51,667 nt of DNA from Patescibacteria group bacterium (GTDB lineage: Bacteria; Patescibacteriota; CPR2; UBA1875; JAMCYV01). The stretch covers positions 1 through 51,667 of the forward strand of contig JAMCYV010000025.1 of assembly GCA_023473595.1 (NCBI GenBank), read 5' to 3'. Below, piece by piece: positions 30,177 through 51,603 of the stretch; position 1 is the first letter of the stretch; each line of letters starts with the position of its first letter. The translations under genes were made by a program, and so were the position numbers. Under the pieces are notes generated by a model. It saw nothing but the letters and a program-made list of their open reading frames with translations, was not told the DNA's origin and made no database searches.

Positions 30177-31250
30177 ATGGCAGCGACCAAGAGCATAAAA
30201 ATAGAAGACCTCTTGGAAGAAGTGGTCAAAAATAATTCTTCCGACCTCCATCTTACTGTCGGAGCGGCGCCAATGCTTCGTATTGACGGAGCCTTAAAGC
30301 CGGTTCCCGATATGTCGCCTTTAAATGCTGATGATGTTGAAGCTTTAACTTTTTCGGTTTTAGACGATGCCCAAAAAGATATCCTTTTAAAAGATAAAGA
30401 AGTCGACTTTTCATTTGCTTACGGCGATGTCTGCCGATTTCGTGCCAATGCCTACCATCAGAAAGGGAACACTGCTCTCGCTCTAAGAATGATTCCGGTT
30501 GAAATCCGAGATTTGGAAAAACTAGGCCTTCCAAAAGTTTGCGGCACCTTTACCGAGTTTCCCCGGGGCTTGGTTTTAGTCACCGGGCCTACTGGAAGCG
30601 GGAAATCAACGACTCTTGCAGCAATGATTGATAAGATCAATTCTGAAAGAAGTGACCACATTATTACCGTTGAAGATCCGATTGAGTATACCCATCAGCA
30701 TAAAAAATCGATTATTGAACAAAGAGAAGTCCATTATGATACCAGGTCCTTTGCGGCTGCCTTAAGAAGTATCCTTCGTGAAGACCCTGATGTTGTTTTA
30801 ATTGGGGAGATGCGAGATCTTGAGACCATCGCGGCGGCGATTACCATCGCTGAGACCGGCCACTTGGTCTTTGCTACTTTGCATACTAACAACGCTGCTC
30901 AAAGTATCGATCGTATCATCGACGTTTTCCCGCCTCATCAGCAGCAGCAGATCAAAGTCCAGCTTTCAAACACCCTTCAAGGAATTGTCTCCCAAAGGCT
31001 TATCCCGGCTTTGGGCGGAGGGAGAGTAGTTGGTGCAGAGATTATGGTGGCGACTCCGGCAGTCCGAAATATTATTCGTGAAGGAAAGACTCATCAGCTT
31101 GATGCTATCATTCAGACTGGGGCGGAACATGGAATGCAATCTATGGATAGGACCCTTGCCGGCCTTGTCAAATCCGGGAGAATTACTGCCGAAGAAGCCA
31201 AGGGCTATGCTATTGATATTCAAGAGCTCGAGAGGCTTATTAGAGGATAA
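30177..31250 (+). CDS. pilT: Type IV pilus twitching-motility (retraction) ATPase PilT
   Basis: 357-aa ORF with GPTGSGKSTT, VEDPIEY, REDPDVVLIGEMRDLET and AETGHLVFATLHTN. Confidence 0.9.
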   Translation: MAATKSIKIEDLLEEVVKNNSSDLHLTVGAAPMLRIDGALKPVPDMSPLNADDVEALTFSVLDDAQKDILLKDKEVDFSFAYGDVCRFRANAYHQKGNTALALRMIPVEIRDLEKLGLPKVCGTFTEFPRGLVLVTGPTGSGKSTTLAAMIDKINSERSDHIITVEDPIEYTHQHKKSIIEQREVHYDTRSFAAALRSILREDPDVVLIGEMRDLETIAAAITIAETGHLVFATLHTNNAAQSIDRIIDVFPPHQQQQIKVQLSNTLQGIVSQRLIPALGGGRVVGAEIMVATPAVRNIIREGKTHQLDAIIQTGAEHGMQSMDRTLAGLVKSGRITAEEAKGYAIDIQELERLIRG

Positions 31251-31294
31251 ATTCTAGTTAGTTATTAGAATTTAGAAATTAGAATTTAATAAAA
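31251..31294. repeat. TTAGAA/ATTAGA low-complexity word tract
   Basis: attctagttagttattagaatttagaaattagaatttaat. Confidence 0.6.
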
Positions 31295-32497
31295 ATGCTT
31301 GATTATACTTACACTGCAAAAAACCACGAAGGCGATATAGTAAAAGGAGATGTCGAAGCCGAAAATGATTTGGCGGCGGCAAGGCTTCTGACTGCTAAAA
31401 ACTTAACTCCGATTGATATCTTGCCGAAAAAGGCTAAAAAAAGCTTTGATTTTCTAAATCGAGTTACGACGAAAGACAAAGCTCTTTTTGCAAGGCAACT
31501 AGCGACAATGATTAATGCCGGTCTTCCGATTTCCCAGGCTCTTACAACTTTAAGCGAACAGACCGCAAACCAAAAATTAAAGGGCATTATTGAGACAGTT
31601 GGCCGTGACATTGAAGGCGGGGCGACCCTCTCAGCTTCCTTCTCCCAATTTCCCAAAGTCTTTAAAGAAACCGAGCTTAGTCTTATAGCTTCAGGAGAGG
31701 CTTCGGGAAGCTTAGATAAAGTACTCTTGAAATTAGCTGGTCAGATCGAAAAAGATTATAGCATTAATAAGAGAATTAGAAGTGCCTTCACCTATCCGGC
31801 TTTTATCGTCGTTGTTATTGCGGGGGTTCTTGTTATTATGACTATTTATGTAATGCCGAAAATGGAGGAGTTATATGCCGATTTCAAGTCCCAGCTTCCT
31901 TTTCTTACAAGAATAGTCTTGGGGTTTAGTCATATCATCTCAAGGTACGGCATATTAGTGCTGCTAGCTCTGATAGGCTTTGCAAGCATTTTAAGGATAT
32001 ATATTAGGAAGCCTCAAGGAAGGAAAATGTGGGATACCTTGAAATTAAGGACGCCTATTTTCGGCAATTTTTTCCAAAAGGTTTATATTACAAGATTTGC
32101 CAGCACTCTTTCGAGTCTTGTAAGCTCCGGAGTCCCTCTCTTGGACAGCTTGAGGATTGTTTCGGATGCGATTGGCAATGTTGTTATAGCGAACGTCATT
32201 AAAGACGCCGCCGAAAAGGTCAAAGGAGGTATTCCGCTTTCTACTCCCATTAAAGAGAGCGGCGAATTTCCTTTATTAGTTAGCCAGATGATAAGCGTTG
32301 GAGAAAAAACAGGTGAATTGGACGGAATGCTCGAAAACCTAGCGAATTTTTATTCTGAAGAAGTAGACAATATGGTTAGAAATTTTTCAGCTCTTCTGGA
32401 ACCGGTCATTATTGTCATAATGGGTATCGTTATCGGCATTCTTTTAGTAGCTATTATGATGCCTATTTATGGCTTATCGACAGTTTTGTTTAAATAA
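31295..32497 (+). CDS. pilC: Type II secretion system F family / type IV pilus platform protein PilC
   Basis: Two T2SSF repeats (ARQLATMINAGLP and RFASTLSSLVSSGVPLL) and three TM helices. Confidence 0.9.
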   Translation: MLDYTYTAKNHEGDIVKGDVEAENDLAAARLLTAKNLTPIDILPKKAKKSFDFLNRVTTKDKALFARQLATMINAGLPISQALTTLSEQTANQKLKGIIETVGRDIEGGATLSASFSQFPKVFKETELSLIASGEASGSLDKVLLKLAGQIEKDYSINKRIRSAFTYPAFIVVVIAGVLVIMTIYVMPKMEELYADFKSQLPFLTRIVLGFSHIISRYGILVLLALIGFASILRIYIRKPQGRKMWDTLKLRTPIFGNFFQKVYITRFASTLSSLVSSGVPLLDSLRIVSDAIGNVVIANVIKDAAEKVKGGIPLSTPIKESGEFPLLVSQMISVGEKTGELDGMLENLANFYSEEVDNMVRNFSALLEPVIIVIMGIVIGILLVAIMMPIYGLSTVLFK

Positions 32498-32503
32498 ACG
32501 CTA

Positions 32504-32532
32504 TTGACAAGTATTAGCATACTTCTTAAACT
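32504..32532 (+). promoter_or_regulatory. Candidate sigma70-type promoter for the pilin gene (TTGACA-17 nt-TAAACT)
   Basis: ttgaca at 32504-32509 and taaact at 32527-32532, about 50 nt upstream of ATG 32581. Confidence 0.4.
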
Positions 32533-32580
32533 TAAAGTAAGAGAATTATTAAAAGGATTTATTCCTATGGAGAGAAACAA

Positions 32581-33027
32581 ATGAAAAAGTTATCTAAGAA
32601 AGGGCTTGACTTGAGTAAATCGAAAGGTTTCACCCTCATCGAACTTATGGTAGTAATGGCAATTATCGCTGTTCTTGCTGTTCTTATTATCGGAGCTATT
32701 CAAGCTGCCAGAAGAACCCAGACAGAGACAGCCAACAGGTCAAATGCCAAGACTTTGCAAACCGGTCTTGAGGCTTTTTATGCTAGAAACAAGGCATATT
32801 GTCTTGCTACTGCTAATAATACTTGTACTACGGGAACTTTCTCAACAAAAGCGGCTCAATTATTCAGTGATGGGTTCTTAAGTTCAACCGCTTTATCCAG
32901 TTCTTCATCTGCAGGCGGCGGTGGCGACGTTACCGCTTTACCTGCTCCGCCTGCTACTCCAACATACACTTTAACTATCGATGATTATAAAGGTGATGCT
33001 ACTTCTGAAACGATTATTGTTCCTTAA
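32581..33027 (+). CDS. Type IV (major) pilin with prepilin N-terminal cleavage/methylation domain
   Basis: KSKG|FTLIELMVVMAIIAVLAVL. It has its own promoter candidate and a strong terminator. Confidence 0.85.
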   Translation: MKKLSKKGLDLSKSKGFTLIELMVVMAIIAVLAVLIIGAIQAARRTQTETANRSNAKTLQTGLEAFYARNKAYCLATANNTCTTGTFSTKAAQLFSDGFLSSTALSSSSSAGGGGDVTALPAPPATPTYTLTIDDYKGDATSETIIVP

Positions 33028-33039
33028 ATTCAGTCTTTA

Positions 33040-33066
33040 AAAGCCGCCCTAAGGGCGGCTTTTTTG
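33040..33066 (+). terminator. Rho-independent terminator after the pilin gene
   Basis: aaaagccgccc-taa-gggcggctttttt. Confidence 0.8.
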
Positions 33067-33080
33067 TTATAATAATTTAT

Positions 33081-33980
33081 ATGCTGGAACAAATTTTACT
33101 TTTTCTTCTTTTTATCTTTGGTCTTATTGTCGGCAGTTTTTTGAATGTTGTTATTTATTGGCTAGAAAGCAAAGAGAATAGTTTAACTAGACTGGTCATT
33201 CTGGGGACCAACGGGACGCCAGAATCAAAAAAAACAGGTAAAGATTCTGGTCAAGCCAGAATGACGCGAGAGAACTTAGGTGGCCGATCTTTCTGTCCTC
33301 ATTGCCAGCATCAACTTAATTTCTTCGATTTAATTCCGGTAGCAAGCTGGTTTTTTTTAAAAGGGAAGTGCAGATATTGTCGAAAAAAAATTTCTTATCA
33401 GTATCCATTAGTTGAAATTGCTACAGGATTCATTTTTTTGTTAACTTTTACTTACAAAAATTCTATCTTTAATCAACCTAGCTACTTGCTACTTGCTACT
33501 GTGCTACTGCTAATTGTTAACTGTTTACTGCTTACTATCTTCGTTTTCGACCTTAAGCACCAAATAATCCCTGACTCAATCATCTATCCTGCGATTATTC
33601 TCGCTGTTTTTTATCTAATATTCTTAAACGCTAATCCTTTTTCTTTAGGGCCAGTTCTTTTTTCATTAGGCTCTGCTTTTCTTGCTGGCGGTTTTTTCTA
33701 TGCAATTGCTGCTATTTCAGATGGCAAATGGATGGGTGGGGGAGATATAAAACTTGCCTTTCTTTTGGGGCTTCTTCTCGGCTGGCCGAATATTTTGGTA
33801 GGTCTTTTTCTAGGCTTTTTCTCCGGAGCAATCGTAGGTCTTTTACTTATTGCTTTAAAAAAGGAGAAGTTAAATAGTGCTATCCCTTTTGGTCCGTTTC
33901 TTATAGTCTCGGCCTGGGCTACTTTATTTCTAGGGGAAAAGATAATACAATGGTACTTAAGGATTATGGGGTTTAATTGA
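33081..33980 (+). CDS. pilD: Prepilin peptidase (A24 family) PilD carrying an in-frame repeat-derived insertion
   Basis: GSFLNVVIY, CPHC...CRYC, DLKHQIIPD, GGGDIKL. Confidence 0.88.
   Translation: MLEQILLFLLFIFGLIVGSFLNVVIYWLESKENSLTRLVILGTNGTPESKKTGKDSGQARMTRENLGGRSFCPHCQHQLNFFDLIPVASWFFLKGKCRYCRKKISYQYPLVEIATGFIFLLTFTYKNSIFNQPSYLLLATVLLLIVNCLLLTIFVFDLKHQIIPDSIIYPAIILAVFYLIFLNANPFSLGPVLFSLGSAFLAGGFFYAIAAISDGKWMGGGDIKLAFLLGLLLGWPNILVGLFLGFFSGAIVGLLLIALKKEKLNSAIPFGPFLIVSAWATLFLGEKIIQWYLRIMGFN
33195..33265. repeat. Palindromic GTCATTCTGG...CCAGAATGAC element inside the pilD ORF
   Basis: gtcattctgg(33195-33204)...ccagaatc...gattctggtcaagccagaatgac(33243-33265). The last 23 nt are identical to 21415-21437. 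Confidence 0.8.
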
Positions 33981-37131: not shown

Positions 37132-38148
37132 TTATTTTGTTCTCTTCCGGTGATATTTTTGGTGAACTCCCCTTAATTTTTGATTGGTAATATGAGTATA
37201 AATCTGGGTAGTAGTAATTGAGGCATGGCCAAGCATCTCCTGGACGCTCCTAATGTCAGCACCGTTTACCAAAAGGTCAGTGGCAAAGGAGTGTCTTAAG
37301 ACATGGGGAGTGACTTTTTTTAAGATACCGGCTAAAGCGGCGTACTTCTTAATCATCCTTTGAATACTTCTTGATGTCAGTCTCAAGTATTCGCCTTCGT
37401 CAACTCCGCCTTTTGAAAATCGAACGAAGAGGGGTTCGAAATTGTCTTCTCTTTTATTTAGATAATTTTTAATGGAATCCTTGGCTCTCTCGGAAAGAAA
37501 TACGATTCTTTCTTTGCCTCCCTTACCTTTTATTAGAAGCTCTCCTCTATCTAGGTTTATCTGCTTCCTATTTAAAGAAACTAGCTCTGAAACCCGAAGC
37601 CCTGTTGAAAAAAGGGTTTCTAAGATTGCTTTGTCTCGAAGATAAATTAAAGTTTCTTTGGTTGTCATCCCGGCTTGCTTGCCCGTCTGAAGCGAAGCAA
37701 AAGAGGGTCCGGAATCTTGATTCCGGTCTCTCCCGACTTTCGTCGGGATCGCCAGAATGACTTGATAAGGTGCCGCTAAAATTCTTTCCACCTCATCAGC
37801 TTCTAAGAAGTCAATTGTCCTTTTTTCATTTGATCCCAGTTCAACTTTTTCAGCCGTTAAGGTAGGGATATCTCTTTTAGACAGATACTTTAGAAAAGCG
37901 CGAAGGGCGATAATATGGTAATTTTGGGTTATCTTTTTTAAACCTTTATTATCTTCTGTTGGATAACGGTTAAGAAAAAGGCGGTATTTTCTAATAAGTT
38001 CAGGGCTGATTTTATTAGGATTAATATCGCCGGCAAATTCGGTAAAACGGTTTAAATAATGTTCGTAATTTCGAATCGTTAAGACTGAACGGTTTTTTTC
38101 TACCTCTAAGTATTCGAGAAAATCGATTATGAGATCGTTGATATTCAT
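37132..38148 (-). CDS. Tyrosine recombinase XerC/XerD-like with an in-frame repeat-derived insertion
   Basis: SAM-like N domain (YLEVEKNRSVLTIRNY), TGLRVSELVSL, RHSFATDLL, LGHASITTTQIYTH. The ORF track extends it to 38193. Confidence 0.85.
   Translation of the reverse strand: MNINDLIIDFLEYLEVEKNRSVLTIRNYEHYLNRFTEFAGDINPNKISPELIRKYRLFLNRYPTEDNKGLKKITQNYHIIALRAFLKYLSKRDIPTLTAEKVELGSNEKRTIDFLEADEVERILAAPYQVILAIPTKVGRDRNQDSGPSFASLQTGKQAGMTTKETLIYLRDKAILETLFSTGLRVSELVSLNRKQINLDRGELLIKGKGGKERIVFLSERAKDSIKNYLNKREDNFEPLFVRFSKGGVDEGEYLRLTSRSIQRMIKKYAALAGILKKVTPHVLRHSFATDLLVNGADIRSVQEMLGHASITTTQIYTHITNQKLRGVHQKYHRKRTK
37664..37761. repeat. Composite palindromic element (GTCATCCCGG...CGCCAGAATGAC) inside the recombinase ORF
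   Basis: Contains the palindromes ccggaatc-tt-gattccgg (37709-37726) and tcccgac-tttc-gtcggga, plus the terminal inverted GTCATYC words. Confidence 0.75.
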
Positions 38149-38255
38149 AAAACAGTAAACAATTAACAGTAAACAAGAAATATTGTGCGACATAAATATT
38201 GTAGCATTTATGAGAACCTCTAGCTACTCAGAGCTAATCGCTATATACTATATTC

Positions 38256-39664: not shown

Positions 39665-40256
39665 TTTTTTAGGAGTATACGCTCAAAACTACGGGATTAT
39701 TATAGGTTTTAGCTTTGCAATGCTAGAGGATCTTATATTTTTAGGGGCAATTTTTCCTGGTGAGACAACTCTCCTCCTTCTGGGATTTTTTGCCGCCCAA
39801 GGAAAATTAAGTATTTTTTACCTTATTCCGGCGGTTATTTTGGGTTATCTTCTTGGCGATAATCTGGGCTACTATCTTGGTTATCATCACGGGAGAAAGT
39901 TTTTAAAAAAATTCGGCAAGTATTTTTTCTTTGAAGAAGATAAGCTTCATTTAGCTGAAGGGTTTTACAAAAGGCACGGATCGAAAACAGTTCTTTTAGG
40001 GAAATTGATTGGTTTTATCCGATCATTTGTGCCCTTTACTGCTGGAATGTCTAAGATGACTTATTCTAAGTTTTTCATTTTAGACTTTTTGGGAACTGTT
40101 TTAAGCGCCTTTTTCATTACTCTTTTAGGCTATTTCTTTGGCAGCAATTGGCGATTTGTCAAAACCACACTTGGAGATATCGGGATTATAGCTTTTATTT
40201 TTATTGCTATTATTATTTATAACTACTTAAAAAAAGTTAAAAGTGAAAGCGCATAG
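39645..40256 (+). CDS. DedA family membrane protein (second paralog)
   Basis: IFPGETTLLLLGF and GKLIGFIRSFVPFTAG. It overlaps the previous gene by 20 nt. Confidence 0.85.
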   Translation: MLDRVLDFLGVYAQNYGIIIGFSFAMLEDLIFLGAIFPGETTLLLLGFFAAQGKLSIFYLIPAVILGYLLGDNLGYYLGYHHGRKFLKKFGKYFFFEEDKLHLAEGFYKRHGSKTVLLGKLIGFIRSFVPFTAGMSKMTYSKFFILDFLGTVLSAFFITLLGYFFGSNWRFVKTTLGDIGIIAFIFIAIIIYNYLKKVKSESA

Positions 40257-41502
40257 AGAAATCCTAAAAAATGGCATAAGAGTTGTCGCTTATCCAACTC
40301 CAACAGAGTCTATATCTCTTATCGTGGGGGTTAAAGCCGGAGTAGTAAACGAGAATTTGAAAAATAATGGAATTTCGCATTTTTTTGAGCATATGGCCTT
40401 TAAAGGGACTTCAAAAAGACCTACAGCTTCAGAAATTTCCAGAGAAATAGACGAAATCGGCGCCGAAGTAAATGCTTACACTGAAAAAGATTATACAGAG
40501 TATTTTGTAAAAGCAAGGCCAATTCATTTTGAAAAGATCGCAGACCTTCTGGCCGATATAATATTTCAAGGCTTTTTTAGCGAAGAAGAGATAGAAAAGG
40601 AGAGAAATGTTATCTTTGAAGAAGAAAAAATTGGGATTGATGACCCAATTATTTTTTTAGAAGATCTTTTCTTAGAAACCCTTTTTAAGGGGACAACTTA
40701 CGCCTATAGGACCATAGGGACTAGAAAATCACTTTCTACTATCAAACGCAAGGATATTTTTGATTACCGGAAGGAATATTACATAGCCGAAAACACTATC
40801 ATCGCGGTTGCCGGAAAAATTCCCGAGGATTGGAAAGAAATTCTAGAAGAAAATTTTTCAGGGGTTTGCCGGGGTAAGCCGAAAGATATAAAAAAGCAAG
40901 AGAGAAAAACTGGAAAGCGTTTAGTTGTTAAAAAAAAGGAAATGAAACAAGCCAATCTGGCTTTAGGATTTCCTACCACAGGTTTTTTGAAACAGGATTA
41001 TATTGAAATTAATCTTCTTAGCAGTATCCTAGGCGGGAGCTTTAGTTCAAGGCTTTATACTGAGATTAGGGAAAAAAGAGGTTTGGCTTACAGTGTTAGA
41101 TCCTTTCCTTTTTATTTCAAAGAGACTGGGTATCTTCAGGTTTACGCCGGCGTAGCCCAAGAAAAAGTTGAAGAAACTTTAAGAATTATTTTATCTGAGC
41201 TTAATAAAATAAAAAAAGATATAACAGAAGCCGAACTTGAAAAAGGCAAAGAACAGCTTAGAAGCAGCCTGGTTTTGGGCTTTGAAGATACCTTAAGGCA
41301 AGCGGGATTAGCCTTAAGAAGAGAGATCTATGATTTAAGTCTTTTTTCTTTAGAAGAAGAAATCAAAAAAATTGATAAAGTCACTCTGGAACAGCTTTTT
41401 TCTAAAGCCGAAGAAATAATCGATTTCAACGAATTAAATCTCACTATTCTAGGCCCCTTTAAAGATGGCGAAAAATTTGCTAAAATATTAAATACTATTT
41501 AA
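40243..41502 (+). CDS. M16 family (pitrilysin/insulinase-like) metallopeptidase
   Basis: HxxEH motif in GISHFFEHMAFKGT. GTG start overlapping the dedA stop. Confidence 0.88.
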   Translation: MKAHREILKNGIRVVAYPTPTESISLIVGVKAGVVNENLKNNGISHFFEHMAFKGTSKRPTASEISREIDEIGAEVNAYTEKDYTEYFVKARPIHFEKIADLLADIIFQGFFSEEEIEKERNVIFEEEKIGIDDPIIFLEDLFLETLFKGTTYAYRTIGTRKSLSTIKRKDIFDYRKEYYIAENTIIAVAGKIPEDWKEILEENFSGVCRGKPKDIKKQERKTGKRLVVKKKEMKQANLALGFPTTGFLKQDYIEINLLSSILGGSFSSRLYTEIREKRGLAYSVRSFPFYFKETGYLQVYAGVAQEKVEETLRIILSELNKIKKDITEAELEKGKEQLRSSLVLGFEDTLRQAGLALRREIYDLSLFSLEEEIKKIDKVTLEQLFSKAEEIIDFNELNLTILGPFKDGEKFAKILNTI

Positions 41503-44395: not shown

Positions 44396-44536
44396 TTACT
44401 AGAAATTGGTAGGAAGACTTACAAATCTCTCTTCAAAAATCTTTCATATTTAAGACCTTCTCATAATTATATGTCTCTTTAGAGCGGTTAATATCGGAAT
44501 TGAAAATATGAAAACAATGGTAAGGAGGTGAGGCAA

Positions 44537-44698
44537 ATGGCAGGCCAAAAAGGAAAAATGACTGTTCAGGAAGCTGGCCGAAAAGGCGGCAGGGCCACAA
44601 GTTCTACTCGAGGCCGAGAGTTCTATCAAGAAATTGGAAGAAAAGGCGGCCAAAGAGTCAGGTCTCTCATAAATAAAGGGAAAAAAGCAGGTAGGTAA
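44537..44698 (+). CDS. KGG-repeat general stress protein (GsiB/YciG-like), 53 aa, not in the ORF track
   Basis: AAGGAGGTG lies upstream. Sequence: MAGQKGKMTVQEAGRKGGRATSSTRGREFYQEIGRKGGQRVRSLINKGKKAGR. Confidence 0.75.
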   Translation: MAGQKGKMTVQEAGRKGGRATSSTRGREFYQEIGRKGGQRVRSLINKGKKAGR

Positions 44699-44738
44699 TT
44701 ATTTGGCCAAATAATTAATGCATTAGGAAGGAGGAAAT

Positions 44739-44915
44739 ATGGTGGAAGAAAAAGGAAAAATGACTGTTGAAGAAGCCGGTAAAAAAGGCGGACAAAGAAC
44801 GAGTGAAACCCATGGAAGAGACTTTTATTCTGAAATCGGGAAAATGGGTGGCTCAAAAGGCGGCCAGAGAGTCAAAAGACTGATAGAAGAAGGTAAAGAA
44901 AGGGAACAGCGATAA
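44739..44915 (+). CDS. KGG-repeat general stress protein (GsiB/YciG-like), 58 aa, not in the ORF track
   Basis: GGAAGGAGG lies upstream. Sequence: MVEEKGKMTVEEAGKKGGQRTSETHGRDFYSEIGKMGGSKGGQRVKRLIEEGKEREQR. Confidence 0.75.
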   Translation: MVEEKGKMTVEEAGKKGGQRTSETHGRDFYSEIGKMGGSKGGQRVKRLIEEGKEREQR

Positions 44916-44946
44916 TACTAATTAATCAAATAGGGAGGTGAATAAT

Positions 44947-45168
44947 ATGGCAGAAGAAAAAGGAAAAATGACTGTTGAAGAAGCTGGCCGAAAAGGCGGC
45001 CAGACCACAAGCTCTACCAGAGGTCGAGAATTCTACCAAGAAATCGGGAAAAAGGGCGGAAGGACGACTAGCTCGACTCATGGCCGAGAATTCTACCAAG
45101 AAATCGGGCATAAAGGCGGCCAAAGGGTCCGATCATTAATTGAGGAAGGCAAAGAACAAGAGAGATAA
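44947..45168 (+). CDS. KGG-repeat general stress protein (GsiB/YciG-like), three repeats
   Basis: GGGAGGTG lies upstream of ATG 44947. The unit GRKGGQTTSSTRGREFYQEIG is repeated. Confidence 0.8.
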   Translation: MAEEKGKMTVEEAGRKGGQTTSSTRGREFYQEIGKKGGRTTSSTHGREFYQEIGHKGGQRVRSLIEEGKEQER

Positions 45169-45202
45169 TTAGTAGAGATTACTTTTCTAGGAAGGAGGAA
45201 AT

Positions 45203-45454
45203 ATGGCGGAAGAAAAAGGAAAAATGACTGTTGAAGAAGCCGGTAAAAAAGGCGGACAAATGACAAGCTCAACCCACGGAAAAGACTTTTATTCTGAAAT
45301 TGGAAGAAAAGGCGGACAGAGGGGAGGTCGCAAAGGTGGCGAAACAACAAGTAAAAGATATGGTCACGATTTTTATTCTGAAATCGGGCATAAAGGCGGC
45401 CAAAGAGTCCGGGAGCTAATCAGCGAAGGCAAAGAAACTGAGATAGAAGAATAG
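45203..45454 (+). CDS. KGG-repeat general stress protein (GsiB/YciG-like), four repeats
   Basis: GGAAGGAGG lies upstream. Repeats of the form KKGGQMTSSTHGKDFYSEIG... Confidence 0.8.
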   Translation: MAEEKGKMTVEEAGKKGGQMTSSTHGKDFYSEIGRKGGQRGGRKGGETTSKRYGHDFYSEIGHKGGQRVRELISEGKETEIEE

Positions 45455-45503: not shown

Positions 45504-47420
45504 TTAGAAATTTTTCAAAAATTGAGCAGTGTCTTCTTGCTCTTTCAGGGCCTCTTTAGCCGCCTTTTCAATAGGAATAAAAAATTGTGTCAGGCCGGCG
45601 TCGTCTTCAATAAGCGGTATTTTCTTCAAGGAATCTTTGGATATTTTTATATGTTTAAGGACAGTTTCGCACATTTTAGAAACCGTCTTCTCCCAGAAAA
45701 TCTTTTGGAGAGAAAAAAGATCTTTATCTAAGCAAATTATCCTTTTATTATTTGATTTCATCCATTCTTTGATTAAAGGGACAGAAGCGCTGTTTAAATG
45801 TCCCTTCTTAAGGTCCTTTTCCCAGTCATGCATATCATCATTTATTTGGCGGGCGATAATGTAATTTTTTAACCATTTCGAGGTATTTTTTACCTCCTTT
45901 GAATTTTTGCCATAACCTAAAGAAAGAAGGATTGCAAGGGGCCCCAGTCCATGGCCAAGCGATTTTTCAGCCAAGATAGAATAGTCTTTATAATTTGGGA
46001 GCCTCTTTGGCAAAGTTAGGACTCCTTCTTTCAAATGAGTTCGGCAATTTTCTACCTCCCAAAGATTAGCAAAGTCTATTTTATCCATAATGCCTTTAAA
46101 AACTGGCATAAAATCTTTGTTTTCTACTGGTAAGCTGATAGAAATTACTGTTAGTTCCCTTAAGCAAATGTTTGCCAATGATAATTCCTTGGGTTTTCCT
46201 TCATCATCGAAAAAATCGTCATAAATAGTATAGGCAATCCAGCCATATAGATTAATAAGACCTAAATCGATCAGTAACTTTTTCTGTATTTTTTGTTTGT
46301 TGCCCAATGTCTGGCTGAAAAAGTAAGGCAGGAGGGCAATTTGATCGCCGAGTTCATGGGATTTTATTTCGTTTAAGGTCTTAAGGGCAATTTTTTTTAA
46401 AGCAGGCTCAAGACTTTGGAACTTTTTAGCAGCTTCTGAAAAGATTCTGTTTTTTAAATTTTCTGACTCTTCCGATTCTTTCTTTTCTACATTTGTTAAT
46501 TTTTGGTATTTTAAAAGAGCTTCTAAAAAGAAAGAAGCAGTGAGGGCCGGCGATCCACCAAAAATTTTCCTGCCGTTATGATTTGACTCAATAATCAAAG
46601 GATAAGGCTTAAAAGAACTGTTTTTTAAGAGGTATGATATGCTTTTTTCAAGTTTTTTTGCCGGATAATTTAAGTTTAGAAGCGAGCTTATGGCAAGGGA
46701 TGTGTCCAAAGGATTATTCCAATATCCATTCTTTTTCTTTTTGGCAAGATAATCTATTAATTTTTCTGAATTGCCTTTAAAAGATCTGGAAATAAAATAG
46801 ATTACCGGATACTCGGAAGCATAATAAGGAGAGGAAAATTTACCTTTCTTTACTGCTTCTTCCATTAATTTAGTTAGATTAGGGAGAATGATTTCCTCAA
46901 GGGATAAAAAATAGGCGATATTGGCATTTACCGCTAGATCAATATCTTTCCAGCTTTTTCCAGCGTTTTTTGGGACTAACCAAGTATAATAAGGGCCTCC
47001 TTCTTTTACTTCTAAATTGGTAAGGAGATTTGCTATCTTTGCAAAAATATTCCCTTTAATAAGAGAGTTTTCAGCAAGAAAAAGACCGGAAAGAGCGCAG
47101 AAAGTATCATCCAAATCATCCGGATAGGGCATAGCCTCATATTCTTTAGAATCCTTAACCCAATAATTGAAAGACCAGTTTTTGCTTCTTTCGTTTAAAA
47201 GGAATCGGACAATTTTATTGTTCATTTCTTTTAATTTTTGCTCATCAAAAGGAGCGAGGGAAGCTAAAATAAGGCTAGCCGAAAAGGTTGTTTGTCTTTT
47301 AAGGGGTTTTTGAAAATCTCTGTTTTTGGAAGCGAAATCTATAAAGCTACCATTACTTTTTTGCTGTGAGGCTAAGAACTTTATCGCTTTTTCTTTTGCT
47401 TGATTTAAGTTTTTGGCCAT
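45504..47420 (-). CDS. Fusion protein: N-terminal prenyltransferase/terpene-cyclase-like alpha/alpha toroid (DxDDT) + C-terminal isoprenoid-synthase-like domain (two DDxxD)
   Basis: The 638-aa ORF has AIKFLASQQKSNGSF-type toroid repeats. YPDDLDDTF is at residues 99-107 (nt 47103-47120), YDDFFDDEG at 400-408 (nt 46203-46220) and QINDDMHD at 525-532 (nt 45825-45839). Confidence 0.6.
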   Translation of the reverse strand: MAKNLNQAKEKAIKFLASQQKSNGSFIDFASKNRDFQKPLKRQTTFSASLILASLAPFDEQKLKEMNNKIVRFLLNERSKNWSFNYWVKDSKEYEAMPYPDDLDDTFCALSGLFLAENSLIKGNIFAKIANLLTNLEVKEGGPYYTWLVPKNAGKSWKDIDLAVNANIAYFLSLEEIILPNLTKLMEEAVKKGKFSSPYYASEYPVIYFISRSFKGNSEKLIDYLAKKKKNGYWNNPLDTSLAISSLLNLNYPAKKLEKSISYLLKNSSFKPYPLIIESNHNGRKIFGGSPALTASFFLEALLKYQKLTNVEKKESEESENLKNRIFSEAAKKFQSLEPALKKIALKTLNEIKSHELGDQIALLPYFFSQTLGNKQKIQKKLLIDLGLINLYGWIAYTIYDDFFDDEGKPKELSLANICLRELTVISISLPVENKDFMPVFKGIMDKIDFANLWEVENCRTHLKEGVLTLPKRLPNYKDYSILAEKSLGHGLGPLAILLSLGYGKNSKEVKNTSKWLKNYIIARQINDDMHDWEKDLKKGHLNSASVPLIKEWMKSNNKRIICLDKDLFSLQKIFWEKTVSKMCETVLKHIKISKDSLKKIPLIEDDAGLTQFFIPIEKAAKEALKEQEDTAQFLKNF

Positions 47421-48822
47421 TTTTCTTTATTAATTCCTTTTTCATTGGAAGCTCAATCTTAAAAACAGTTCCTTCTTCTTTATTGCTTTTTGCGGCGATA
47501 GTTCCAGAAAAGTCTTTTTCAATAATATTTTTAGTCATTGCTAGTCCGATGCCCATTCCTTTGCTTAAGTCTTTAGTAGTAAAGAAGGGATTAAAAATTT
47601 TCTCCAAATTTTTTTCCGGTATCCCTTGGCCAAAATCACAAACTTCCAAATTAATTTTATTTTTGGCTTTATAAAGTTTTATTTGGACGGTTTTTCCAAG
47701 CGAGCTTTTATGATAGGCATCGATGGCATTCGTTAAAAGATTAGTTATCGCCTGATGCAATTTCAAAGGATTGCCGAAGATTTTTATTCTCTCACCTTCG
47801 TTAAAAATCAATTTGACATTGGCTTTTCTCGCTTTATAAGAAAGAATTTGAATAGCTTGTTCGACTTCCTTGTTGATTAAAAAGTAAGTATTTATTTCTG
47901 TCTGCTGAACTTGTTTGCGTACAGCACTTATGAAGCTCTCCATCTTTTTTGTCGCTTGCAGAGCGAGTTTTAAATGAGGCTTAATGCTCTCGATTCTTTT
48001 GGAATCTTCTTGCCTCATTTGTTCGAGATTTAGAGAGACGGCTGACAAGGGATTTACTAGATCGTGAAAAATTCCGGAGGCTAGCCACCCGAATTCGGCA
48101 AAGTGGGCCATCTGGGCCATCTTTTCAAGCTGGGTTTTCTGAAGTTCTTTGGTTCTTTTTATAACCCTAATCTCTAAGAGGTCTCTTTCTTTCTTTAAAG
48201 CGGCTTCCGACTGGTGGGCCCTTTTCAAGGATTTTTCTATTTCCCTGTTGTATAGCCAAGAAATAACCGTGATAATTGACAAGGTAATGACAGCGACGAT
48301 AACATCGCTAAAATCAGCGCTTCTGTTCCGCCAATAAGCGTCAGGATGATAGATAGAGATTGATTGGAGATATGACAAAATCAAACAATAGACAGAAATA
48401 GTAAAAGTAGTAATGACTGCTAACCGAGTGCCCATAAGTATGCCGGACATAACGATAATTAAAGAGTAAGTGATAAAGGCTTGAGGAAGGTCGGGACCCC
48501 AGACAAAAACGGTATAAGAGATAGGAGCTGTAAACATAAAGATCAGGATGTAACAGGCCCAGTCAATTTTTCCCTTCTTAGAAAGCCGGTAGAGAAAAAC
48601 TAATATCCCGATAATTATAAGAGCGATCCGAGCGGGGATGCCGGGTACATGATGGAATCTGACAACATCAACAATAATCCTTAAAAGAGCAGCCGAAGCG
48701 AGGATAATTGTGCTTAATAAAATAACGTTTAGGATAAATTCACGACGCCTAATATCCTCCTTCTTTGAGCGAGGCTCTACTAATTTCCTAATCAGTTTTC
48801 TTGTTGGTAAAGGTATTTTCAA
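47353..48822 (-). CDS. Sensor histidine kinase with six-TM sensor region
   Basis: About six TM helices lie in the first 190 aa, with no large loop. H-box FHDLVNPLS, N-box LLTNAIDA, G1 DFGQGI, G2 GMGIGLAM. TTG start. The 3' end overlaps the next gene by 68 nt. Confidence 0.88.
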   Translation of the reverse strand: MKIPLPTRKLIRKLVEPRSKKEDIRRREFILNVILLSTIILASAALLRIIVDVVRFHHVPGIPARIALIIIGILVFLYRLSKKGKIDWACYILIFMFTAPISYTVFVWGPDLPQAFITYSLIIVMSGILMGTRLAVITTFTISVYCLILSYLQSISIYHPDAYWRNRSADFSDVIVAVITLSIITVISWLYNREIEKSLKRAHQSEAALKKERDLLEIRVIKRTKELQKTQLEKMAQMAHFAEFGWLASGIFHDLVNPLSAVSLNLEQMRQEDSKRIESIKPHLKLALQATKKMESFISAVRKQVQQTEINTYFLINKEVEQAIQILSYKARKANVKLIFNEGERIKIFGNPLKLHQAITNLLTNAIDAYHKSSLGKTVQIKLYKAKNKINLEVCDFGQGIPEKNLEKIFNPFFTTKDLSKGMGIGLAMTKNIIEKDFSGTIAAKSNKEEGTVFKIELPMKKELIKKNGQKLKSSKRKSDKVLSLTAKK

Positions 48823-48838
48823 ATCTTAAGGCTTATTG

Positions 48839-48955
48839 TTACTTCTTCCAACCCCAGGGAGAAGCAACAACGGCAGAAGATACGGTGAATGCCTCAAGAG
48901 TTTTATGATCGCGGGCTCTTTTGTCAGTAAGGACTTTTTCGAGCACTTTTTTCAT
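48839..48955 (-). CDS. Small peptide ORF (38 aa), candidate signalling-peptide/RiPP precursor; not in the ORF track
   Basis: AAGGAGGG lies 4 nt upstream of the ATG. Sequence: MKKVLEKVLTDKRARDHKTLEAFTVSSAVVASPWGWKK. Its stop is 16 nt before the HK start. Confidence 0.5.
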   Translation of the reverse strand: MKKVLEKVLTDKRARDHKTLEAFTVSSAVVASPWGWKK

Positions 48956-49032
48956 AAATCCCTCCTTTTTATTATTAGTTCTCCCTTTACTTTAAATTAT
49001 AAGTTGTTAAAGAAAAATTAAGAAAAGATAAA

Positions 49033-49713
49033 CTATTTGGCCAAGTCCAACTTATAGCCTCGTCCGGGGATAGTATATAAAAGCTTTACTTGATTTTTTA
49101 AATGGATTTTCCGCCTCAAATTGGAAACATGGACCTCGATTGCGTTTGAGAAAAGATCGGCATTCATATCCCAGACATGCTCCATAATCATTCCTCTCGT
49201 TACAACGTTTCCTTTATTTCGCATAAGGTATTCCAAAAGCTCATATTCCTTTAAGGTAAGGTAAATTTTTTTATCGCCTCTTTTAAAGATTTGCTTTTTA
49301 GTGTCCAAAACTAAATTATCAATTTTTAAAATATCTCCCTTAGCTTCCTTCGGCCTTCTAAGAAGCGCTCTTATCCTTGCCAGAAGTTCGGCAAAAGAGA
49401 ATGGCTTGGTTAAGTAATCATCGGCTCCGGTATTTAAAAAATCAACTTTGGTAGCGGATTCCGAAACGACAGAGAGCATTAGTATCGGCATATTCTGGCC
49501 GTCTTCTCGGATCTCTTTTAAGACCAAAAGCCCGTCTTTCTCCGGTAAATTCTTATCCAAGATAATGAGGTCATATTCGTTGGTGCAGGCATAATAAACG
49601 CCCTTTTCGCCATCGGTGGCGGTGTCTACTTCGAAGCATTCCGCTTCTAGCATATTTTTCAAAGATTTATTTAAGACTTTATCGTCATCAATGATTAAGA
49701 TGCGCATTTTCAC
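49033..49713 (-). CDS. OmpR-family response regulator (receiver + winged helix)
   Basis: ILIIDDD, DLIILDKNLP, LTKPF, LTLKEYELLEYLMRN...GRGYKL. Confidence 0.92.
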   Translation of the reverse strand: MKMRILIIDDDKVLNKSLKNMLEAECFEVDTATDGEKGVYYACTNEYDLIILDKNLPEKDGLLVLKEIREDGQNMPILMLSVVSESATKVDFLNTGADDYLTKPFSFAELLARIRALLRRPKEAKGDILKIDNLVLDTKKQIFKRGDKKIYLTLKEYELLEYLMRNKGNVVTRGMIMEHVWDMNADLFSNAIEVHVSNLRRKIHLKNQVKLLYTIPGRGYKLDLAK

Positions 49714-49790: not shown

Positions 49791-50516
49791 TCAGATCGGT
49801 AATCTTTTCTTCCTCCAAAAAAGAAGGTAGGTGATAGGTCCGATTAAAATAATTGAAATAACGTAAGTTCCGGAGCCAGCTGTTTTAAAAGTAGTACCGA
49901 CAACTGCTTGAGTTAACAAATAGGCAATGATAATAACATTAAAAATCTGGTTTTCTTTTACAAGCGGAAATTCAGACTTTGTCTGGCGATCCCAATAAAA
50001 AAGACCCGTAAAAATTAAGATTAAAAGAAGGACAAAGCCGCCGGCCGGATTATTCAGGGGCCCGAGCTGGCTTTGCCAGAAAAGAAGAAGAGTCAGAAAC
50101 AAAGCTAAAAAGACAAAAAACGGCCATTTGCTGCCTAATTTTTCTTCTTTTCTAGGAAGGAATTTACCGCCGAAGTAGAAAGGGAGAACGGTCGCCATTA
50201 GCCCCCAAGCAATAATCTGGACGGCGACAATAAACCAGTTAATTCCTAAAAAAAGCGGAGGAGCGGCGTAAAAACTGCGGTGAAGGAAACCCTCGACTAC
50301 AAAGCCGAAAATGGCGCCGGCTAAGAAAAGCTGGCGGTCAGTTAGTTTAAAGGTTCTTATAGCGTTTTCGAGAGTTAAAATATATAAAAAATAGAAAAGA
50401 ATTAAAACCCCCTGGGTGAGAAGCGTCGGTCCATGGGCAAAATACTCGCCGTTTAGAAAGATCGCAAGAGCCGTGATCAATAGTATTCTTAGAAATGAAC
50501 GCAATTTGCCTTGCAT
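49791..50516 (-). CDS. Polytopic membrane protein, unknown function
   Basis: 241-aa ORF with about seven hydrophobic helices. Confidence 0.55.
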   Translation of the reverse strand: MQGKLRSFLRILLITALAIFLNGEYFAHGPTLLTQGVLILFYFLYILTLENAIRTFKLTDRQLFLAGAIFGFVVEGFLHRSFYAAPPLFLGINWFIVAVQIIAWGLMATVLPFYFGGKFLPRKEEKLGSKWPFFVFLALFLTLLLFWQSQLGPLNNPAGGFVLLLILIFTGLFYWDRQTKSEFPLVKENQIFNVIIIAYLLTQAVVGTTFKTAGSGTYVISIILIGPITYLLFWRKKRLPI

Positions 50517-50531
50517 AATTCAATTATAGCA

Positions 50532-50858
50532 TTAGTGAGATACAAAGAATTCGCCGATAAGGAGTATAACAAACAAAGTCCCTATGGCAATGGACGGGTA
50601 AATTAAAAGAGCTCTTTCCTTTTGTTTAATAAAAGCGACCATTCCTGTAACAAATGCGGAAATACCGCAAGCCATACCAGTTAGCATTGAAAGGGAAAGG
50701 AACGGCCTTACAGTAATATCTTCTAAAATAGCCCCGGCCGGTACAGACTTATATAAAGTATTTGCCAAAAGTCCGCCGGTAAAAAATAATACCGGCATTG
50801 CGATGATGAGTAATATCGACCACTTGCCCAGTTTGCTCTTAGGGAAAATAGTTGCCAT
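50532..50858 (-). CDS. Small membrane protein (3 TM)
   Basis: 108-aa hydrophobic ORF, co-oriented with 49791..50516. Confidence 0.5.
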   Translation of the reverse strand: MATIFPKSKLGKWSILLIIAMPVLFFTGGLLANTLYKSVPAGAILEDITVRPFLSLSMLTGMACGISAFVTGMVAFIKQKERALLIYPSIAIGTLFVILLIGEFFVSH

Positions 50859-50956: not shown

Positions 50957-51202
50957 CTAGCTCATGAGATAGCTGGCATAGGCGCGCTCTATTAGCGCGC
51001 GTTCGCTTGGGCTCATTTGAATCCTATAGTATGAGCCTCGAAGCAGCTCTCCGACTACCTCGCGAGCTCGGTTTTCAGTCCCTTTCGCGCTTGGCGAATC
51101 GAAGATCAAATGATCCCTTTCGGCTTGGTCCAGCAAGCTGTCTATGAGGTGACCAGGGAGACCAGCATTCCCCGCCGCCTCTCTGATTTCAGAGGTGCAC
51201 AT
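50957..51202 (-). CDS. Hypothetical protein, G+C-rich, paralog of 51214..51456
   Basis: AAGGAG lies 5 nt upstream. It shares A(A/G)xAG(V/L)PxHLI...L..AE.DH..F.S.S......RA.E.V..L and a C-terminal Y(L/F)MS with its neighbour. Confidence 0.55.
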   Translation of the reverse strand: MCTSEIREAAGNAGLPGHLIDSLLDQAERDHLIFDSPSAKGTENRAREVVGELLRGSYYRIQMSPSERALIERAYASYLMS

Positions 51203-51213
51203 TATCGCTCCTT

Positions 51214-51456
51214 TCAGCTCATAAAGTAGTGCTGAAGCTCACAGACGATTGTCATGTGAGCATCAGGGCCCATCGAGATGCCGGCCGTGATAAGTCTCTG
51301 GACTGCTTCTTGGGCACGACTGTTTGCAGGTGCTTCCGACTCGGAACCGAAGAAGGAGTGATCAGACTCAGCGTTGCTAAGCATCTTTTCGATCAAGTGC
51401 TCGGGGACTCCGGCGGCTTCTGCTGCCGCTCTGACTTTCTTCAAACTGCCTTCCAT
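51214..51456 (-). CDS. Hypothetical protein, G+C-rich, paralog of 50957..51202
   Basis: The start was moved to the internal ATG (MEGSLKK...), which lies 6 nt after GAGGAGGA. The ORF track extends it to 51522. Confidence 0.55.
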   Translation of the reverse strand: MEGSLKKVRAAAEAAGVPEHLIEKMLSNAESDHSFFGSESEAPANSRAQEAVQRLITAGISMGPDAHMTIVCELQHYFMS

Positions 51457-51603
51457 TTCTAATCCTCCTCTGTAGGAATAACTGATTTCGCTTATTATAT
51501 AATAATTTTTATGCTTTGTCAATCTTTCTTAAATCGGTCTTATCCAGGGTCCAGACATCTTGGACACTTTTAGCTGAATCATTAAGAATGGAAGGAGTTA
51601 AAA

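Follow-up and report, generated by a model that had tools for sequence, protein, structure and literature searches.

A 38-codon open reading frame (ORF) on the minus strand of a 51,667-nucleotide contig from a Patescibacteria group bacterium (GenBank assembly GCA_023473595.1, contig JAMCYV010000025.1, positions 1 to 51,667; the entire stretch is termed the window) is, on the evidence of sequence comparison, a real and strongly conserved gene of an unnamed peptide family that extends across the candidate phyla radiation (CPR), or Patescibacteria. This gene is part of a module, linked across hundreds of lineages, in which the genes for an OmpR-type response regulator, the peptide, a six-helix sensor kinase and a soluble two-domain terpenoid enzyme follow one another in that order. 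An invariant Trp near the C terminus of the peptide, usually present as Pro-Trp, suggests a lipid-modified signaling peptide like ComX, and the interpretation that we tentatively favor is that the peptide is the precursor of a Trp-prenylated signal that would be sensed by the kinase, working like the ComQXPA system. The features of the module in the window, with the basis for each, are as follows.

45504 to 47420, minus strand: two-domain terpenoid enzyme, 638 amino acids (Protein Data Bank [PDB] profile match, AlphaFold2 [AF2] model, Foldseek)
47353 to 48822, minus strand: sensor histidine kinase, 489 amino acids (Pfam, hydropathy, charge distribution)
48839 to 48955, minus strand: small peptide gene, 38 amino acids plus stop (ORF, translation, orthologs, pN/pS, profile matches)
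48854 to 48859, minus strand: codons for Pro33-Trp34, the family core, with Trp invariant and Pro near-invariant (alignments)
48960 to 48967, minus strand: Shine-Dalgarno (SD) sequence AAGGAGGG, then 4 nt (ATTT) and the ATG (read from sequence)
48996 to 49001, minus strand: TATAAT, candidate −10 element of an internal promoter for the peptide gene (read from sequence)
49007 to 49032, minus strand: T-rich direct repeats, candidate OmpR-type regulator box that the regulator may bind (sequence)
49033 to 49706, minus strand: OmpR/PhoB-type response regulator with receiver and winged-helix domains (Pfam, start context)

Conservation of the small gene

The ORF is located within a 210-nt gap in a row of genes on the same strand and extends from an ATG at 48955 to 48839, encoding the 38-amino-acid peptide MKKVLEKVLTDKRARDHKTLEAFTVSSAVVASPWGWKK. 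A preliminary description, made from the sequence alone, had reported this as an unannotated minus-strand ORF between the regulator and kinase genes, and both its coordinates and its translation were confirmed, as was the presence of a strong SD sequence (AAGGAGGG at 48967 to 48960) 4 nt before the ATG. The same description had placed the stop codon 16 nt before a kinase start lacking an SD sequence; both points were confirmed, as the TAA stop (48841 to 48839) is followed after 16 nt by the first codon of the kinase ORF, a TTG at 48822, and no purine-rich SD sequence precedes this TTG. The translational coupling to the kinase gene that had been suggested on this basis is no feature of the family, as the distance from stop codon to kinase gene is 39 to 103 nt in four related loci (L001, L002, L004 and L005).

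Two sets of related loci were utilized. The first consisted of homologs of the 638-amino-acid protein (more than 830) and the second of 80 loci from a metagenome scan with the N-terminal membrane domain of the kinase, whose kinase domains were 35 to 47% identical to that of the window. Named homologs of the 638-amino-acid protein were all from Patescibacteria/CPR lineages, bar one labeled Methylomirabilota. The first two related contexts consisted of a regulator gene, an uncalled gap, a kinase gene and an enzyme gene, and the gaps contained the ORFs MKNLIKNILTSKKSRNSKILSTLALVTVTNELLVWG and MKELIKKILTDKAYRNSRALSKLMLSLVVVGLPWATK. Among the 82 loci (of 85) with sufficient upstream DNA, 81 carried one ORF of 33 to 44 amino acids directly before the kinase gene, the sole exception being L142. 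A hidden Markov model (HMM) with a five-sequence seed detected 76 of these 81 ORFs at E < 1e-3, while five borderline cases were accepted on their position and Trp pattern. Application of the family HMM to all six-frame ORFs of 20 to 100 amino acids from the window and 84 loci produced exactly one match per locus, which was always the ORF upstream of the kinase gene. Ratios of nonsynonymous to synonymous change (pN/pS; Nei-Gojobori method, close pairs) ranged from 0.0 to 0.55 and were mostly 0.04 to 0.18. The claim that the ORF is protein coding was, therefore, upheld, with the frame being kept in 81 of 82 loci and pN/pS being far below 1. The preliminary description had named absence of the ORF from related loci, or breakage of its frame there, as evidence to the contrary, and what these loci exhibited was retention of the ORF in all but one case.

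A profile search of 1.84 billion representative proteins detected 363 clusters (50% identity) at E ≤ 1e-3, almost all with lengths of 34 to 45 amino acids. The 29 members present in an annotated collection had no Pfam domain and no name other than "hypothetical protein." Neither Pfam nor NCBIfam contained a model for the family, and no relevant Pfam match was obtained for 59 members even at E ≤ 10. The conservation of the loci, the HMM matches, the pN/pS values and the profile search results together indicate that this is a real gene under purifying selection and a member of a large unnamed family.

Small ORFs are common in AT-rich DNA, and the gene caller had listed a plus-strand ORF at this position, so a chance ORF in an AT-rich spacer, or a true gene on the opposite strand, had to be considered. 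The plus-strand ORF described previously (61 amino acids, 48836 to 49021, with a TTG start and no SD sequence) does exist and is antisense to the small ORF. No antisense frame was open in more than 28 of 65 distinct peptide genes, this being the count for the frame most often free of stop codons; the frame of the 61-amino-acid ORF was not mapped among the antisense frames, so 28 of 65 is its upper limit. The plus-strand ORF is, judging from these orthologs, not conserved. Given the conservation of the minus-strand frame, the low pN/pS values and the prediction by a gene caller of the 38-amino-acid gene on a near-identical contig, these explanations are refuted by the comparative data and are assigned a negligible probability. 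Positions 48700 to 49100 were identical in contigs from four other metagenome runs, indicating that this stretch is not an assembly artifact; the identity of these contigs also meant that no population-level variation was detected across this interval. DNA of the window recurred unchanged in mine-tailings, mine-drainage and sediment metagenomes.

Sequence features of the peptide family

Alignments revealed a helical N-terminal consensus, M-[KN]-K-L-I-K-K-[IV]-L-T-[DNS]-K-x-x-R-[NS], in which the Met, Leu9 and Arg15 are nearly invariant. This is followed by ∼17 variable and often hydrophobic residues. Between the positively charged N terminus and the Trp, 39 of 65 distinct peptides had a 15-residue stretch with a mean Kyte-Doolittle hydropathy of ≥1.6. 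About 15 of the 65, including those of the window, L109 (KRISKEVLKSAKAGH), L127 (SAEEIVLEEEGS) and L154, were polar or strongly charged in the middle and still kept the N terminus and the Pro-Trp. None of the 19-residue windows in the 65 peptides had a summed Hessa energy below +3 kcal/mol, both this scale and the hydropathy scale being rough.

The Trp was the sole invariant column of the alignment and was found at position 34 ± 1 in most members, with a spacing of 19 residues from Arg15 in 43 of 65 peptides. The residue before the Trp was Pro in most peptides (52 of 64 from the loci and 164 of 173 from the database; ∼90%), and Gly was frequent three residues before it, with no conserved GG cleavage motif. 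The tail after the Trp consisted of 0 to 11 variable residues, most often 2 or 3; 1 to 3 residues followed the Trp in 42 of the 64 peptides from the loci and in 121 of the 173 from the database. A second Trp was found in only 12 of 237 sequences (165 of the 173 database members have a single Trp), and hence the WGWKK ending of the window peptide is a local variant, with W36 and the KK tail being specific to this peptide. The earlier depiction of a charged helical leader and a core with Trp near the C terminus applies to the family as a whole, the core being a variable stretch, except that only one Trp is conserved. Together, a conserved N-terminal handle, a variable remainder and a lone invariant Trp near the C terminus characterize a precursor in which one residue is functional or modified.

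The location of the gene 16 nt upstream of the kinase gene in the window, the two near-terminal Trp codons and the absence of an SD sequence at the kinase start would be compatible with a cis-acting leader ORF or arrest peptide, of the Trp-sensing TnaC or trp leader type, that controls expression of the kinase and enzyme and has no function in trans. Against this, the 16 N-terminal residues are conserved across lineages whose kinases are only 35 to 47% identical, the distance from Trp to stop varies from 0 to 11 residues, the distance from stop to kinase gene varies from 16 to ∼100 nt and most members have one Trp only. A consensus scan also detected no terminator or anti-terminator between the peptide and kinase genes. 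A leader function of this type is considered very improbable.

Other peptide classes were rejected. A type I toxin did not fit a gene that is in the sense orientation inside a kinase operon and has many polar members, a lanthipeptide or other thioether peptide did not fit the essential absence of Cys, and a sorting signal did not fit the absence of a cargo protein.

Gene order and the two-component proteins

The regulator exhibited Pfam matches to Response_reg (5e-30) and Trans_reg_C (2e-23). A mechanical ORF begins at GTG 49713, while the ATG at 49706 has AAGGAGGTG upstream at an appropriate distance and agrees both with a 224-amino-acid gene call on L003 and with the N termini of orthologs (MRILI...); ATG 49706 is, therefore, the probable start.

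The kinase has an N-terminal domain of ∼190 amino acids, with six hydrophobic segments, short loops and no extracytoplasmic domain, followed by HisKA-like and HATPase_c domains (Pfam HATPase_c plus a weak HisKA match). Its N terminus, when read from TTG 48822, aligns with those of orthologs. Both the N-terminal tail, which is conserved and contains 11 Lys or Arg residues, and the second loop are positively charged, indicating that the N terminus is inside the cell. Among the residues conserved in the kinase family, W108-G109 and W164 are in loops that would face outward, and D173 starts the sixth hydrophobic segment. A six-segment kinase with short loops resembles the peptide-pheromone receptors AgrC, ComD and ComP.

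The regulator gene preceded the kinase gene in 56 of 61 loci with enough sequence, and the enzyme, or at least its C-terminal half, followed the kinase in 55 of 57. All five of the contexts inspected for enzyme homologs had the order regulator, peptide, kinase, enzyme, the peptide gene being called in three and uncalled in two. In the window, the enzyme and kinase genes overlap by 68 nt. These data showed that the four genes are linked and that the peptide gene is single-copy and keeps its position.

The terpenoid enzyme

The 638-amino-acid enzyme is soluble and has two domains (AF2 model; mean predicted local distance difference test score, 89.7). The public gene call on a near-identical contig is a 573-amino-acid truncation (L003, 4346 to 6067), and an alignment of 43 homologs supports the 638-amino-acid form. 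Residues 1 to ∼315 constitute a class II terpene cyclase of the single-domain type, an alpha-alpha barrel bearing the general-acid motif DxDDT (D102-L-D-D-T106). A PDB sequence profile search matched residues 7 to 311 with the cyclase domain of the drimenol synthase AsDMS (E, 8e-13), such that the P-Y-P-D-D-L-D-D-T of the family aligns with F-P-D-D-L-D-T-T of AsDMS and the Asp mutated in the AsDMS D333N crystal structure aligns with D104, which is invariant in the family. The top Foldseek matches for this half were AsDMS, small squalene-hopene-type cyclases, MstE and SsDMS, including an MstE entry (6sbc) bound to a farnesylated aromatic compound.

Residues ∼330 to 638 have an all-alpha trans-isoprenyl diphosphate synthase (IPPS) fold according to the AF2 model and Foldseek. 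Matches included hexaprenyl-, farnesyl- and geranylgeranyl-diphosphate synthases and the indole prenyltransferase Ord1, with TM-scores on the target of 0.6 to 0.72 and E values of 2e-4 to 1e-3. The first Asp-rich motif (FARM) is a DDxxD (D401-D-F-F-D405), with D401 and D405 being invariant and D402 nearly so among 44 homologs. The second Asp-rich motif (SARM), Q525-x-N527-D528-D529-x-H531-D532, is a full DDxxD when anchored on the conserved Gln; an NDxxx reading is possible only by a shift of one residue, as an Asn is located directly before. The PDB sequence profile search with the enzyme matched no IPPS chain, and Pfam and NCBIfam gave only subthreshold matches.

A canonical polyprenyl diphosphate synthase gene was present beside the module in at least nine loci (L001, 7889 to 8917, with a PF00348 match of E 2e-59; L167, 3292 to 4329; L142, 2753 to 3796; L124; L110; L099; L117; and L139/L140), being located after the enzyme gene in some cases and between those for the regulator and peptide in others. 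None was found near the module of the window. The adjoining synthase suggests that the substrate of the enzyme is a prenyl diphosphate supplied by a separate enzyme. Seven loci (L142, L147/L148, L150/L151, L162 and L163) keep only the IPPS-fold half and have no recognizable cyclase half.

Upstream DNA of the peptide gene

The stop codon of the regulator gene is directly adjoined by TTTATC-TTTT-CTTAAT-TTTT-CTTTAA, with a period of ∼10 to 11 nt, and then by the TATAAT, the SD sequence and the ATG. Clearer versions of the repeat were present in several lineages as CTTTAC-N5-CTTTAC-N5-CTTTAC, with a TATAAT ∼10 nt later. The region upstream of the peptide gene contained the pattern CTTWAH-N4-6-CTTWAH in 11 of the 65 distinct loci versus 0.6% of background windows (∼28-fold), many of the 11 loci being interrelated. 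A repeat with a TATAAT at the equivalent position was observed in L088 to L090, L096, L098, L101, L114, L118, L134 and L158. The candidate −10 element noted previously (TATAAT, 49001 to 48996, minus strand) is present, but is not significant on its own and has no matching −35 element; a consensus promoter scan around the operon found no such element, and promoter-like sites were no more common than in shuffled sequences. The repeats, with their 11-nt period, look like an OmpR/PhoB-type box replacing the −35 element, which would give the peptide gene an internal promoter dependent on the regulator.

An SD-like sequence, GAAAGGAGGTGATAA, preceded the peptide gene in ∼26 of 64 distinct loci. Where the peptide gene has no SD sequence, an (A)GGTCGA motif was observed downstream of a TATAAT-like hexamer. 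This motif was present in 30 of 64 distinct upstream regions, versus ∼0.14 per kb overall, at 25 to 75 nt upstream of the peptide start (for example, at ∼2600 in L150, ∼3810 in L159, ∼133 in L137 and ∼1957 in L144) and was absent from the window. It often forms a hairpin loop whose stems vary by locus (GATTCC/GGAATC, GATCC/GGATC and GGATTC/GAGTCC). Single-sequence folding supported the hairpin in only about two-thirds of cases (mean z-score, −0.8), and no match to it was found in Rfam. The (A)GGTCGA element may be a structured element of the 5′ untranslated region.

Proposed mechanism and alternative explanations

Under the interpretation that we tentatively favor, the amphipathic Lys-rich helix of residues 1 to 16 would act as a recognition handle, and the functional site would be the invariant Trp near position 34, which in most members is two to five residues from the C terminus. 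The IPPS-fold domain of the co-operonic enzyme would alkylate Trp34 with an isoprenoid, as ComQ does with ComX, and the class II cyclase domain may cyclize the isoprenoid chain before or after transfer. The lipidated C-terminal part would reach the outer face of the membrane, where the adjacent kinase would sense it through its membrane-embedded domain. The kinase would then phosphorylate the regulator and thereby generate feedback on the promoter just upstream of the peptide gene. We infer that the Trp is modified, that the peptide is processed or exported, that the kinase senses it and that the system is autoregulated; alkylation of Trp34 and sensing by the kinase are proposed because ComQXPA is the only known bacterial system that joins such parts.

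The module matches ComQXPA in outline, yet none of its components is in the ComX, ComQ, ComP or ComA families. Both systems consist of four linked, partly overlapping genes on one strand, for a short precursor, an enzyme of the IPPS superfamily, a regulator and a polytopic kinase that lacks an extracytoplasmic domain, and neither module encodes a dedicated exporter or protease. The family shares with ComX a short precursor in which the only invariant residue is a Trp close to the C terminus, set in a C-terminal part that is variable apart from it. In ComX, the Trp is third or fourth from the C terminus and is geranylated or farnesylated by ComQ, and ComQ(RO-E-2) requires it to be second to fourth (PMC5331326). 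The polar middles of about 15 of 65 peptides, including that of the window, and the lack of a favorable insertion energy suggest that membrane anchoring is not obligatory, which supports a signal of this type. The systems differ in gene order (regulator, peptide, kinase, enzyme here versus Q-X-P-A), in peptide length (33 to 44 amino acids versus 53 to 73), in the strongly conserved N terminus of the present family and its lack of sequence similarity to ComX, and in the enzyme, which is twice the size of ComQ and has an additional class II cyclase domain, no PF00348 match and a full second DDxxD.

A further precedent is StheQ/StheX of Sphaerobacter thermophilus (Chloroflexi), a ComQ/ComX-like pair in which the Trp of StheX is second from the C terminus (bioRxiv 10.64898/2026.08.29.745113). 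As in the present family, a short peptide with a Trp near its C terminus is paired with an IPPS-fold enzyme outside the Firmicutes, and identity to Bacillus ComQ/ComX is very low, so that recognition depended on motifs and context. StheQ differs in having a single domain, with a FARM and an NDXXX pseudo-SARM, and in being encoded directly beside the peptide gene; here, the second motif is of the DDxxD type, a cyclase is fused to the enzyme and the kinase gene separates the peptide and enzyme genes. In a 2014 census, comQXPA was found only in Firmicutes (PMC4008528).

A number of observations weigh against a ComX-like signal. Purifying selection acts on the entire peptide and not merely on a short C-terminal piece, and the near-invariant Pro before the Trp has no counterpart in ComX. 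Membership of the ComX family was rejected, as neither the window peptide nor 59 members had a relevant Pfam match (E ≤ 10) and NCBIfam gave none. The kinase is of the HisKA type with six helices and the regulator is OmpR-type rather than NarL-type, unlike ComP and ComA. For the enzyme, PF00348 matched none of 44 members at E ≤ 0.01, and an hhalign comparison of the C-terminal domain with neighboring canonical synthases was not significant (probability, 0.3%); in that nonsignificant alignment both Asp-rich motifs line up and the canonical Arg-Arg after the first motif is missing. The second motif of the enzyme is not a ComQ-type pseudo-SARM (NDxxx/GDxxx), and in ComQ, which has NDxxx, an Asp in the first position strongly lowers activity (PMC5331326). 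The enzyme may instead make a free cyclic terpenoid, because its full second DDxxD resembles those of chain-elongating prenyltransferases. The peptide is kept in L109/L111 and L158 with no enzyme gene nearby, while L142 (2051 to 6306) keeps an enzyme domain without a peptide gene. No conserved protease or exporter was present in the module in the five annotated contexts, and the locus was found only in DNA metagenomes and in no RNA run.

Precedents for the enzyme itself lie outside peptide signaling. A chain-elongating DDxxD prenyltransferase and a class II cyclase are combined in the fungal PvCPS (PMC12393454), which resembles the present enzyme in joining a class II cyclase to an IPPS-fold prenyltransferase and differs in that its prenyltransferase is a canonical geranylgeranyl diphosphate synthase. 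AsDMS and MstE are the best structural matches of the cyclase half. AsDMS differs in that its fusion partner is a HAD phosphatase and not an IPPS-fold domain, while a point of resemblance is that MstE cyclizes a prenyl chain that is already on an aromatic ring. PvCPS, AsDMS and MstE all lack a linked peptide gene or two-component system, and the IPPS half found here is not recognized by PF00348.

Constraint on the whole peptide, together with middles that are signal-peptide-like or membrane-seeking in most members, makes a nonsecreted partner of the kinase a serious rival. In this case, the full-length peptide would be a small kinase subunit or regulator at or in the membrane, in the style of MgrB or SafA acting on PhoQ, with the Lys-rich N terminus in the cytoplasm and the Pro-Trp at the outer interface, possibly gauging how thick or ordered the membrane is; what the kinase senses would be a membrane property, and its regulated output would be the terpenoid enzyme, which would adjust membrane lipids. 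The 15-residue hydrophobic stretch in 39 of 65 peptides, the nearly constant distance from Arg15 to Trp and the lack of a linked processing or export gene in the five annotated contexts are consistent with such a partner, and the conserved cytoplasmic tail and putative outward-loop residues of the kinase could dock it. Likewise, an enzyme with a full DDxxD pair may make a free cyclic terpenoid, and L109/L111 keep the peptide with no enzyme nearby. MgrB and SafA are proteins of ∼30 to 65 amino acids that act on a kinase, and many of the present peptides similarly have a positive N terminus and a hydrophobic stretch. However, the genes for MgrB and SafA lie outside the kinase operon and both proteins possess a complete transmembrane helix, whereas here the gene is inside the kinase operon and the hydrophobic stretch, judged by rough scales, seems too short to form such a helix, or is absent in a quarter of members (∼15 of 65 being polar or charged in the middle, including those of the window, L109, L127 and L154). 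A nonsecreted partner also leaves unexplained the near-universal tight linkage to a soluble IPPS-fold enzyme and the location of the Trp 2 to 5 residues from the end. On balance, this explanation is regarded as serious but doubtful.

Most members resemble a signal peptide with a few additional residues (a charged N region and a hydrophobic core of 13 to 15 residues), and in Gram-positive three-component systems (agrD/agrC, comC/comD and plnA/plnB) the peptide gene is usually located directly upstream of that for its receptor kinase. These features would favor an exported signal that is unmodified, or is modified by something other than the terpenoid enzyme, with the latter merely being a target of the two-component system; the presence of both DDxxD motifs, as in the assembly-line synthase PvCPS, is also compatible with this. 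As in AgrD/AgrC/AgrA, ComC/ComD/ComE and PlnA/PlnB/PlnCD, the precursor gene is in an operon with the regulator and directly upstream of a short-loop kinase, those of the known systems having 5 to 8 helices, and the signal would be expected to autoregulate its own production. In contrast to these systems, neither a protease of the AgrB type nor a double-glycine leader paired with a C39 ABC exporter was present in the five annotated contexts. The kinase falls outside the HPK10 (AgrC/ComD) type, the regulator is OmpR-type and not LytTR, and a terpenoid enzyme is linked. A Pro just before the Trp would block type I signal peptidase if cleavage occurred there. Furthermore, an invariant Trp beside an IPPS-superfamily enzyme would be a coincidence repeated across hundreds of lineages. 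An exported signal of this type is, hence, thought unlikely.

The Trp-prenylated signal could be extended to a more specific proposal, namely that the Trp is alkylated by the IPPS-fold domain and the isoprenoid is cyclized to drimane- or labdane-like rings, producing a peptide-meroterpenoid signal read by the six-helix kinase. This would be the first peptide-pheromone (quorum-sensing-like) system of the CPR and a new class of ribosomal natural product; we consider it improbable.

Other genes of the window

The genes around the module fit a CPR-type organism. Type IV pilus genes (30177 to 33980, plus strand) encode a T2SSE-family ATPase, a T2SSF platform protein and an A24 prepilin peptidase; such genes are typical of CPR genomes, where they are tied to DNA uptake and host attachment. 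The window also codes for BacA, M16 peptidases, a tyrosine recombinase and a second kinase. The second kinase (HisKA/HATPase; 15004 to 16386, minus strand) is unrelated, and the family HMM detected no peptide gene beside it. The tyrosine recombinase, which is of the phage integrase family (37132 to 38193, minus strand), and an M16 (insulinase-type) peptidase (40243 to 41502, plus strand) are located ∼6 kb from the module; the peptidase is outside the conserved synteny. Four tandem paralogs of 56 to 83 amino acids with KGG stress-protein repeats (EEKGKMTVEEAGKKGGQ...FYxEIGxKGGQRV) are present at 44528 to 45454 (plus strand), in convergent orientation with respect to the gene for the terpenoid enzyme and next to its end, and the last of these has a Pfam KGG match of 6e-15.

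A pair of membrane-protein genes directly upstream of the regulator gene (49791 to 50858) has no counterpart in related loci. Beyond this pair are two adjacent paralogous small ORFs (50957 to 51202 and 51214 to 51522, minus strand; 81 and 102 amino acids) that share motifs such as AAG(V/L)P(E/G)HLI(E/D)..L..AE(S/R)DH..F and belong to no Pfam family.

Significance of the module

The CPR bacteria represent a large share of bacterial diversity and have tiny genomes, few regulators and a life attached to other cells. In a literature search of incomplete coverage that combined CPR/Patescibacteria with ComX/ComQ, quorum sensing, terpene cyclases and ribosomally synthesized peptides with posttranslational modifications, no description of the module or of peptide signaling was found. 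As the module is kept across hundreds of lineages in reduced genomes, it is likely to be important to CPR biology, and at its center is a small gene that has no family name and is missed by some gene callers, having been left uncalled in two of the five related contexts inspected first. Should the peptide be a signal lipidated on its Trp, the chemistry of ComX would reach well outside the Firmicutes and a class II terpene cyclase would be tied to peptide modification, a link not previously described. If it is a nonsecreted partner, the peptides would constitute a new family of kinase partner proteins and provide a handle on what CPR organisms sense. We propose that this previously unnamed peptide family is at the core of a peptide and two-component module with a dedicated modifying enzyme.

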